From: Escherichia coli
Lineage (GTDB): Bacteria > Pseudomonadota > Gammaproteobacteria > Enterobacterales > Enterobacteriaceae
Reading direction: 5' to 3' (one strand)
Assembly: GCF_003334335.1 (NCBI RefSeq)
Contig: NZ_QOWQ01000103.1
DNA length: 1,542 nucleotides
Shown here: positions 72 through 473 of the stretch, in pieces
How the letters are laid out: each line of letters opens with the position of its first letter
How positions within the stretch are numbered: position 1 is the stretch's first letter
Program-made: the position numbers and the translations under genes
The notes under the pieces: generated by a model
Databases searched by the model: none
The model's input: only the letters and a program-made list of their open reading frames with translations
Told to the model about the DNA's origin: nothing

Positions 72-473
72 GTGGGAACCAAAGTGTCAGATATGCAGAA
101 AAATGTGACTCCCGGCAGGCGAAAAGGCTGCCCTAATTATCCTCCCGAATTTAAACAGCAGCTCGTTGCTGCCTCCTGTGAACCCGGGATATCCATCTCA
201 AAACTTGCTCTTGAAAATGGCATTAACGCCAATCTGTTGTTCAAATGGCGACAACAATGGCGCGAGGGAAAGCTGCTATTACCTTCTTCAGAGAGCCCCC
301 AGCTACTTCCTGTGACTCTCGATGCAGCTGCCGAACAGCCAGAATCGCTCGCAGAGGACCCGGAAACCCTCAGTATCAGCTGTGAGGTAACGTTCCGGCA
401 CGGGACGCTCCGCTTCAATGGCAATGTCAGCGAAAAGCTCCTGACTCTGCTGATACAGGAACTGAAGCGATGA
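72..473 (+). CDS. tnpA: IS66-family accessory protein TnpA (Orf1), small helix-turn-helix protein; start ambiguous (GTG at 72 or in-frame ATG at 93)
   Basis: 133-aa ORF from the track. The segment ...PEFKQQLVAASCEPGISISKLALENGINANLLFKWRQQWREG is a typical transposase-associated HTH signature. Stop TGA at 471-473 overlaps the next gene's ATG (ATGA). No strong Shine-Dalgarno sequence precedes either candidate start. Confidence 0.85.
   Translation: MGTKVSDMQKNVTPGRRKGCPNYPPEFKQQLVAASCEPGISISKLALENGINANLLFKWRQQWREGKLLLPSSESPQLLPVTLDAAAEQPESLAEDPETLSISCEVTFRHGTLRFNGNVSEKLLTLLIQELKR

Follow-up and report, generated by a model that had tools for sequence, protein, structure and literature searches.

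A putative leader hairpin at the tnpA initiation region of the IS66-family insertion sequence ISEc8

The left end of ISEc8 and its genes

The stretch of DNA analysed here (the window, 1542 nucleotides, with all features on the given strand) is the left 1542 bp of ISEc8, an insertion sequence of the IS66 family. It is 99.9% identical at the DNA level to thousands of copies in complete Escherichia coli genomes, including a copy in E. coli E2865 (L001), its best match. Examination of the terminus reveals a left terminal inverted repeat (IRL, 1-24) that begins with GTAAGCG. When aligned to the reverse complement of the right end of L001, the first 13 of 13 bases are identical and a partial match continues to about base 24. 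The GTAAGCG motif is invariant in 36 of 36 aligned relatives, and the IS66 terminal repeat is present both in the window and at the right end of the full copy L001. A target-site duplication of 8 bp (GAACGGCA on either side) is seen in L001, where the near-identical element lies in yehR; the flanking DNA of the present copy lies outside the window.

The window codes for three consecutive genes in the typical IS66 layout. The first, tnpA (84-473, with its start at 84 or 93 and its TGA stop at 471-473), encodes a helix-turn-helix (HTH) accessory protein, as indicated by the NCBIfam model NF047595 and by homologues with PF01527. It is followed by tnpB (470-817), supported by its open reading frame and by RefSeq, whose ATG overlaps the tnpA stop codon (ATGA, 470-473), and by the 5' part of tnpC (867-1542), likewise identified from RefSeq and the open reading frame, which encodes the ISEc8-family transposase and runs off the window. 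RefSeq uses the same gene names, labeling the first two products as IS66-like TnpA and TnpB and the product of full copies as "IS66-like element ISEc8 family transposase". In the related element IS679, transposition reportedly requires all three gene products.

The tnpC gene differs in length between copies: it is 1386 nt long in E. coli E2865 (L001, 2367-3752) and 1539 nt long in other ISEc8 copies (for example L165, 3402-4940). Together with the length of the L001 element, which measures 2289 bp from end to end, this points to a sub-lineage whose transposase gene has lost about 153 bp in frame. The window ends at 1542, within tnpC. Versions of tnpA of the ISEc8 type, with 90-99% amino acid identity to the TnpA of the window, are also found on short contigs assigned to non-enterobacterial genomes, namely L016 (labeled as a Corynebacterium MAG), L034 (Chryseobacterium sp.) and L036 (Acinetobacter idrijaensis). 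Contamination of the assembly or bin is a more likely source of these copies than recent transfer.

TnpA scores 97.4 bits against NF047595 (IS66_ISRel24_TnpA; cut-off 74), which places it among the curated IS66 TnpA proteins, and falls below the cut-off of the long form, NF038385 (88.6 versus 150). A further weak match, under the cut-off, is to the IS2 repressor family NF006928 (E 1e-6). The match to NF047595 covers residues 21-131 of the 133-residue form of the protein; with the first 20 residues outside this match, the curated model is uninformative on the N-terminus. Similarity to distant relatives begins near the RRKG motif at residue 16, with onsets between residues 16 and 21 of the 133-residue form. 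A search for a solved structure of TnpA returned none.

Candidate start codons of tnpA

An in-frame TAA at 66-68 makes GTG72 (72-74) the first possible start of tnpA, and this is the codon from which the open-reading-frame track calls a protein of 133 residues. The original prediction had set this codon against the ATG at 93-95, stating that the two share a frame and that the second would give a product shorter by 7 residues. Both statements hold, the shorter product having 126 residues and beginning MQKNVTPGRRKG. Two more in-frame candidates had been overlooked. One is GTG84 (84-86), which would yield a protein of 129 residues (MSDMQKNV...). The other is GTG105 (105-107), which lies four codons before the RRKG core and is ATG in some close relatives; it is not favored.

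The Shine-Dalgarno (SD) evidence is uniformly weak. The best duplex with the 3' tail of 16S rRNA amounts to -6.3 kcal/mol for GTG72, at 12 nt from the start, to -4.7 kcal/mol with split pairing for ATG93, to -4.2 kcal/mol at a spacing of 5 nt for GTG84, and to -3.7 kcal/mol for GTG105. The energies for GTG72 and ATG93 fall at the 17th-32nd percentile among the 107 NTG triplets of the window and are no better than chance, in agreement with the earlier statement that neither codon has a convincing SD sequence. The duplex at GTG84 is formed by GGGA (74-77), a weak SD-like motif 6 nt upstream of the codon, and is also not above chance. In relatives, a GGR core is retained 6-8 nt upstream of the start codon. 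Scoring of SD sequences was accordingly set aside as an arbiter of the start, every candidate being weak and within the chance range. The earlier remark that leader and promoter are confined to some 70-90 bp is fair; a scan of positions 1-300 of the window for sigma-70-like promoters found none.

Public records carry three N-termini for this one gene, of 126, 129 and 133 residues. RefSeq, through the PGAP pipeline, places the start at ATG93 (WP_001171523.1; locus 1593-1973, equivalent to window 93-473), a call that is computational, and GTG84 is the choice of many gene callers, with clusters of the 129-residue form that include ones of 568 and 1500 members. The start was thus rightly described as ambiguous, with annotations split; the framing of the question as GTG72 versus ATG93 was mistaken, for GTG72 is the least supported candidate and the choice lies between ATG93 and the overlooked GTG84. 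A literature search on IS66, IS679 and ISEc8 found no account of the TnpA N-terminus, of a promoter or of a leader structure. Considered alone, the ambiguity is one of routine annotation, since the choice alters only 3-7 residues of a non-conserved N-terminal tail and bears chiefly on consistency between records. Most likely, TnpA starts at ATG93, at GTG84 or at both, giving 126 or 129 residues, rather than at GTG72.

Comparison of left ends across relatives

Homologues were sought with a HMMER search over 1.84 billion representatives, and 38 diverse TnpA proteins were aligned. The DNA of relatives was taken from 13 plasmid loci and a further 79 loci, one genome per species, with the left ends read in frame. 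The codon counts below refer to 35 non-redundant left ends from Enterobacterales, Burkholderiales and Rhodocyclales, lineages that are not phylogenetically independent.

At the protein level, homologues with 35-55% identity often begin with MGTKV, MGTTLD, VVGT(KL) or MVGATL, which align with the "MGTKVSD" read from GTG72 in the window. By the alignment of TnpA homologues that the original prediction had proposed as a check, GTG72 would therefore win. That check, once run, does seem to back GTG72 but is misleading, for the DNA shows the conservation to be that of an inverted repeat. The similarity runs on upstream, through the position of the TAA stop of the window, as translations of the "SGxHQIVVG" type (for example "SGVHQIVVG") in L004, L006 and P0235. 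At the position of codon 72, 18 relatives have GTG, 4 ATG, 10 GCG, 2 TGG and 1 CGG, so that 13 of 35 have a non-start codon there; within the ISEc8 clade GTG72 is invariant. In the window GTG72 pairs with CAC at 59-61. Across relatives the equivalent codon covaries with the upstream arm of the repeat, ATG occurring with CAT in L054 and GCG with CG in L044; further variation matched by the arm includes a GAT (Asp) in L046, which pairs with ATC, and an ATA-AAG in L066, which pairs with an altered arm. The comparison shows that GTG72 is not a conserved start but a paired position of the inverted repeat. As a point of method, the upstream conservation seen here at the protein level stems from nucleic-acid structure, and an alignment of predicted proteins picks the wrong start.

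A different pattern is seen at the position of GTG84, where a start codon is found in 35 of 35 relatives: 15 GTG, 13 TTG and 7 ATG. Where this codon would specify leucine it is TTG in 13 of 13 cases and never CTN, although TTG accounts for just 20% of leucine codons elsewhere in the same genes; where it would specify valine it is GTG in 15 of 15 cases, against a background of 32%. L063 and L078 have no other start in frame from the upstream stop to the conserved core. The closest outgroups, from Serratia (L006) and Klebsiella indica (L032), have ATG at codon 84 and ATA or TTG at codon 93, and elements of the ISEc22 type have a single ATG start 82 nt from the element end, as compared to 84 in ISEc8. 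These comparisons show codon 84 to be the ancestral, family-wide start of tnpA. The conservation of NTG at this position could in part reflect a pairing constraint at the base of the stem, and small probabilities calculated naively from these counts are overstated because the lineages are not independent.

A conserved predicted hairpin overlapping the initiation region

The minimum free energy (MFE) fold of positions 40-100 (-15.7 kcal/mol, z -3.3) is a hairpin whose 5' arm spans 45-61, with pairing segments at 45-48, 52-55 and 57-61, and whose 3' arm spans 72-88, with the corresponding segments at 85-88, 78-81 and 72-76. The loop between them (62-71, CAAATAAGTA) holds the in-frame TAA at 66-68. 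In L004, L021 and L024 a deletion of 1 nt in the loop drops this stop and leaves the rest of the block unchanged. Folding of bases 1-130 yields an extension of the same structure (z -4.3). The 3' arm contains GTG72, GGGA (74-77) and GTG84, so that the predicted hairpin overlaps the initiation region, and the same is observed in 21 of 22 representative relatives, which form this hairpin with z scores of -3.3 to -8.5 despite differing arm sequences; the exception is L048 (z -0.2). The stems of the relatives are often perfect over 13-17 bp, with a loop or spacer of 3-10 nt, as illustrated by the arms UUUGGUAUCCACC/GGUGGAUACCAAA in L046 and GGAUAGUG/CGCUAUCC in ISEc22. In all relatives the start codon stands at the base of the 3' arm or just past it. 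A consensus of the aligned left ends, CAAAGTGGTG.CCACC-AAAT-..-T.GTGGGAACCA..NTG, has complementary halves.

Counts of pairs along the inner helix (11 pairs, in an unfitted MAFFT alignment) are consistent with this structure: 83.6% of the positions are paired, as opposed to 36-49% in controls with the partner displaced by 1-3 columns. Changes on both sides are seen in 6 of the 11 pairs, and none of 500 shuffles scores as high for covariation as the observed helix, a statistic that is inflated by the relatedness of the sequences; the same signal would also be produced by a palindromic protein-binding site. On the MAFFT alignment, where the 3' arms are shifted against each other by gaps, RNAalifold recovered no more than a trivial 4-bp GGTG/CACC hairpin, and the structure was assessed instead by folding each sequence separately and by explicit pair counts on the in-register columns of the inner helix. 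A search of positions 1-140 of the window for exact inverted repeats (seed of at least 6, total length of at least 8) found none, since the stem of the window is broken by a mismatch and by G.U pairs. In the predicted ensembles, GTG72 has an unpaired probability of 0.00-0.01 whenever the 5' arm is part of the transcript, and ATG93 is the most accessible of the candidates (0.43-0.77).

Two other roles for the repeat were considered and rejected, namely a symmetric transposase-binding site, as the block is absent from the right end, and an intrinsic terminator, as no U-run follows the 3' arm. No matching RNA family was found in Rfam, and no description of a stem-loop or hairpin in IS66 was found in the searchable literature.

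In elements of the ISEc8 type, CAAAGTG occurs as a direct repeat at 47-53 and 80-86 of the window, once in each arm of the hairpin, and in the Burkholderiales relatives an inverted form, CAAAGTG ... CACTTTG, is present in its place. As the repeat is direct and not inverted in ISEc8, its outer helix assumes a shifted register (GACA 45-48/TGTC 85-88) and is weaker than that of the Burkholderiales relatives. A separate strong hairpin with a 9-bp stem (AUAAGCCCG/CGGGCUUAU; -20.1 kcal/mol, z -4.6) lies between tnpB and tnpC at 843-868, its 3' arm including the A and U of the tnpC start codon (867). No U-run follows it, and it thus resembles a second structure occluding a start codon rather than a terminator. 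No obvious SD sequence precedes tnpC.

A natural allele lacking the start at 84

ATG93 (93-95) is the only ATG among the candidates in the window, and in the aligned left ends it is present only in the ISEc8 clade and in L041. The left-end comparison shows that it arose within the ISEc8 clade, nine bases downstream of the start at 84. A scan of viral contigs, in which both codons were left free, recovered 64 copies of the element: 39 with GTG84 and ATG93, 24 with GTA84 and ATG93 and 1 with ATG84 and ATG93. Each of these 64 copies retains at least one of the starts at 84 and 93. The reciprocal allele, with GTG84 and ATT93, is rare and is seen in a Salmonella copy.

The GTA84 allele is essentially the window with a G86A change and is otherwise intact; examples are L165 (2601-2641), L112 and L094, and it occurs with at least 10 different flanks in viral contigs. 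Complete E. coli genomes contain its exact 41-mer at 3848 sites, spread over 592 genomes with a median of 9 and up to 20 per genome. The exact 41-mer of the GTG84 allele is found at 4902 places in 2881 complete E. coli genomes, with a median of 1 per genome. The GTA84 copies of O157:H7 have a full tnpA, tnpB and 1539-nt tnpC. Given that the GTA84 element has multiplied intact, the start at 84 is dispensable there and ATG93, which this allele keeps, appears to be sufficient. That GTG72 suffices in these copies in place of ATG93 is far less plausible, and the spread of the allele could in principle have depended on GTG84 copies that share the cell and provide TnpA in trans. The starts at 84 and 93 appear to be redundant in ISEc8. 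The G86A change also weakens the predicted local hairpin by 5.6 kcal/mol, from -15.7 to -10.1 kcal/mol, and the natural allele offers a ready-made test of the hairpin.

Functional interpretation and alternatives

In light of the above, we propose that positions 72-95 are the initiation region of tnpA and coincide with the 3' arm of a conserved hairpin and the bases directly following it, that the start is at 84, at 93 or at both and not at 72, and that initiation is occluded by the hairpin. This is the best explanation available to us, and we hold it with moderate confidence. The hairpin would act in the leader of the tnpA mRNA, where it would occlude the weak SD-like GGGA and the start codon and would thereby keep the translation of TnpA low. 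Its effect would be strongest on read-in transcripts, which begin outside the element and hence carry the 5' arm, and it would blunt activation from flanking genes. Judging from the predicted folds and by analogy to other elements, sequestration of the tnpA initiation region is the most likely role of the hairpin. In the allele of the window, which has both GTG84 and ATG93, TnpA would be made from ATG93 and probably also from GTG84; the resulting forms of 126 and 129 residues would differ solely in the non-conserved tail ahead of the HTH domain.

An alternative in which GTG72 is the true and sole start, giving a 133-residue TnpA with "MGTKV" as a conserved part of the protein, is very improbable. 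In its favor, GTG72 is the first start codon after the in-frame stop and is invariant in the ISEc8 clade, and many distant predicted TnpA proteins begin with MGTKV, MGTTLD or VVGT and align with it. However, the equivalent codon is a non-start in 13 of 35 relatives, and several of these lineages have no other start upstream of 84. Changes in the residues concerned, from G to D/E and from TK to IK, TT or AK, are each matched by changes in the 5' arm, and the conservation extends upstream of the stop codon. Moreover, GTG72 is fully paired in the predicted folds and is preceded only by the A/U-rich loop, without an SD sequence at a usable spacing. A rather unlikely reading, though a more serious one, is that ATG93 is the only functional start in ISEc8 and that GTG84 is a silent relic kept by its pairing in the stem. 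The universal presence of a start codon at 84 in relatives, including ATG where codon 93 is not a start, argues against it, as do the Salmonella copy with GTG84 and ATT93 and the wider distribution of the GTG84 allele, which is found in 2881 genomes. Nor does ATG93 have an SD-like element at a usable spacing, GGGA lying 15 nt upstream. On the other hand, it is elements with GTA84 that have multiplied, reaching about 9 copies per genome, and ATG93 is both the choice of PGAP and the most accessible candidate in the predicted folds. It is also an ATG, which is a stronger start codon than GTG.

A further possibility, which we regard as unlikely though still a live competitor, is that the inverted repeat works as double-stranded DNA, either as a palindromic operator for an HTH protein, for instance in self-repression by TnpA, or as a structure used in transposition. 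Self-repression is known from InsA of IS2, and TnpA is itself an HTH protein with the weak, sub-cut-off match to NF006928 described above. The repeat shows no asymmetry between strands: G.U and A.C mismatches in the helix number 29 each, and of the two folds the sense one has the greater stability in 17 relatives and the antisense one in 11 (p = 0.22). With equal numbers of the two mismatches and equal stability of the two folds, an RNA hairpin is indistinguishable from a DNA palindrome by these measures, and the scan turned up no promoter from which the 5' arm would be transcribed. Against a role as DNA, the arms of 13-17 bp, often perfect and with compensatory changes throughout, are a better fit to a folded strand, and the loop or spacer of 3-10 nt is unlike the fixed spacing of an operator for a dimer. 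The block is further restricted to the left end, and the start codon is always at the base of its 3' arm. Building on the occlusion of initiation by the hairpin, one might also envisage that the hairpin is a left-end device shared across IS66 that gates the translation of TnpA, and that G86A, a change common in E. coli O157:H7 that abolishes the ancestral start, is an up-mutation that shifted initiation to ATG93 and helped ISEc8 reach about 9 or more copies per genome in that lineage; this extended scenario is speculative and, in our estimate, improbable.

Comparison with known systems

Elements of the ISEc22, ISEc23 and ISCro1 types share the tnpA-tnpB-tnpC layout and the GTAAGCG end with ISEc8. 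In ISEc22 the leader hairpin ends right at its single unambiguous ATG. The TnpA of the ISCro1 type, of about 220 residues, has an extra N-terminal domain of about 100 residues, and these elements (L010, 107-784; L011, 113-763) are without the leader block of ISEc8.

Among other insertion sequences, IS10 and IS50 have an end-proximal sequence that pairs with the ribosome-binding site; the fold-back reportedly forms only in transcripts begun outside the element and so protects it against outside promoters. The geometry of ISEc8, with the 5' arm nearer the end of the element and the 3' arm containing the start, would permit the same logic. The mechanism of IS10 and IS50 needs a native promoter inside or downstream of the 5' arm, and none is predicted in ISEc8 by the scan of positions 1-300.

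A close parallel in position is seen in IS200, where a stem-loop at the left end, in the 5' UTR of tnpA, sequesters the SD sequence and inhibits binding of the 30S subunit (Ellis, Trussler and Haniford 2015, PMC4513863). As in that element, the inverted repeat of ISEc8 is specific to the left end and lies upstream of, and overlaps, the start of the first gene, at a comparable position some 45-88 nt from the end. There are also differences: IS200 has a near-perfect SD sequence (AAGGGGGU), whereas the SD-like motif of ISEc8 is the weak GGGA, and IS200 has an antisense RNA and a separate terminator hairpin, neither of which was found in ISEc8. The gene carrying the hairpin in ISEc8 encodes an accessory HTH protein and not the transposase.

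Together these comparisons suggest that the left-end hairpin of ISEc8 is most likely a further example of a known regulatory type, in a family for which no description of it was found in the searchable literature. Elements of the IS66 family are very abundant in enterobacterial pathogens and plasmids. If the hairpin is confirmed, IS66 would join IS200, IS10 and IS50 as elements that restrain their first gene through occlusion of its initiation region.
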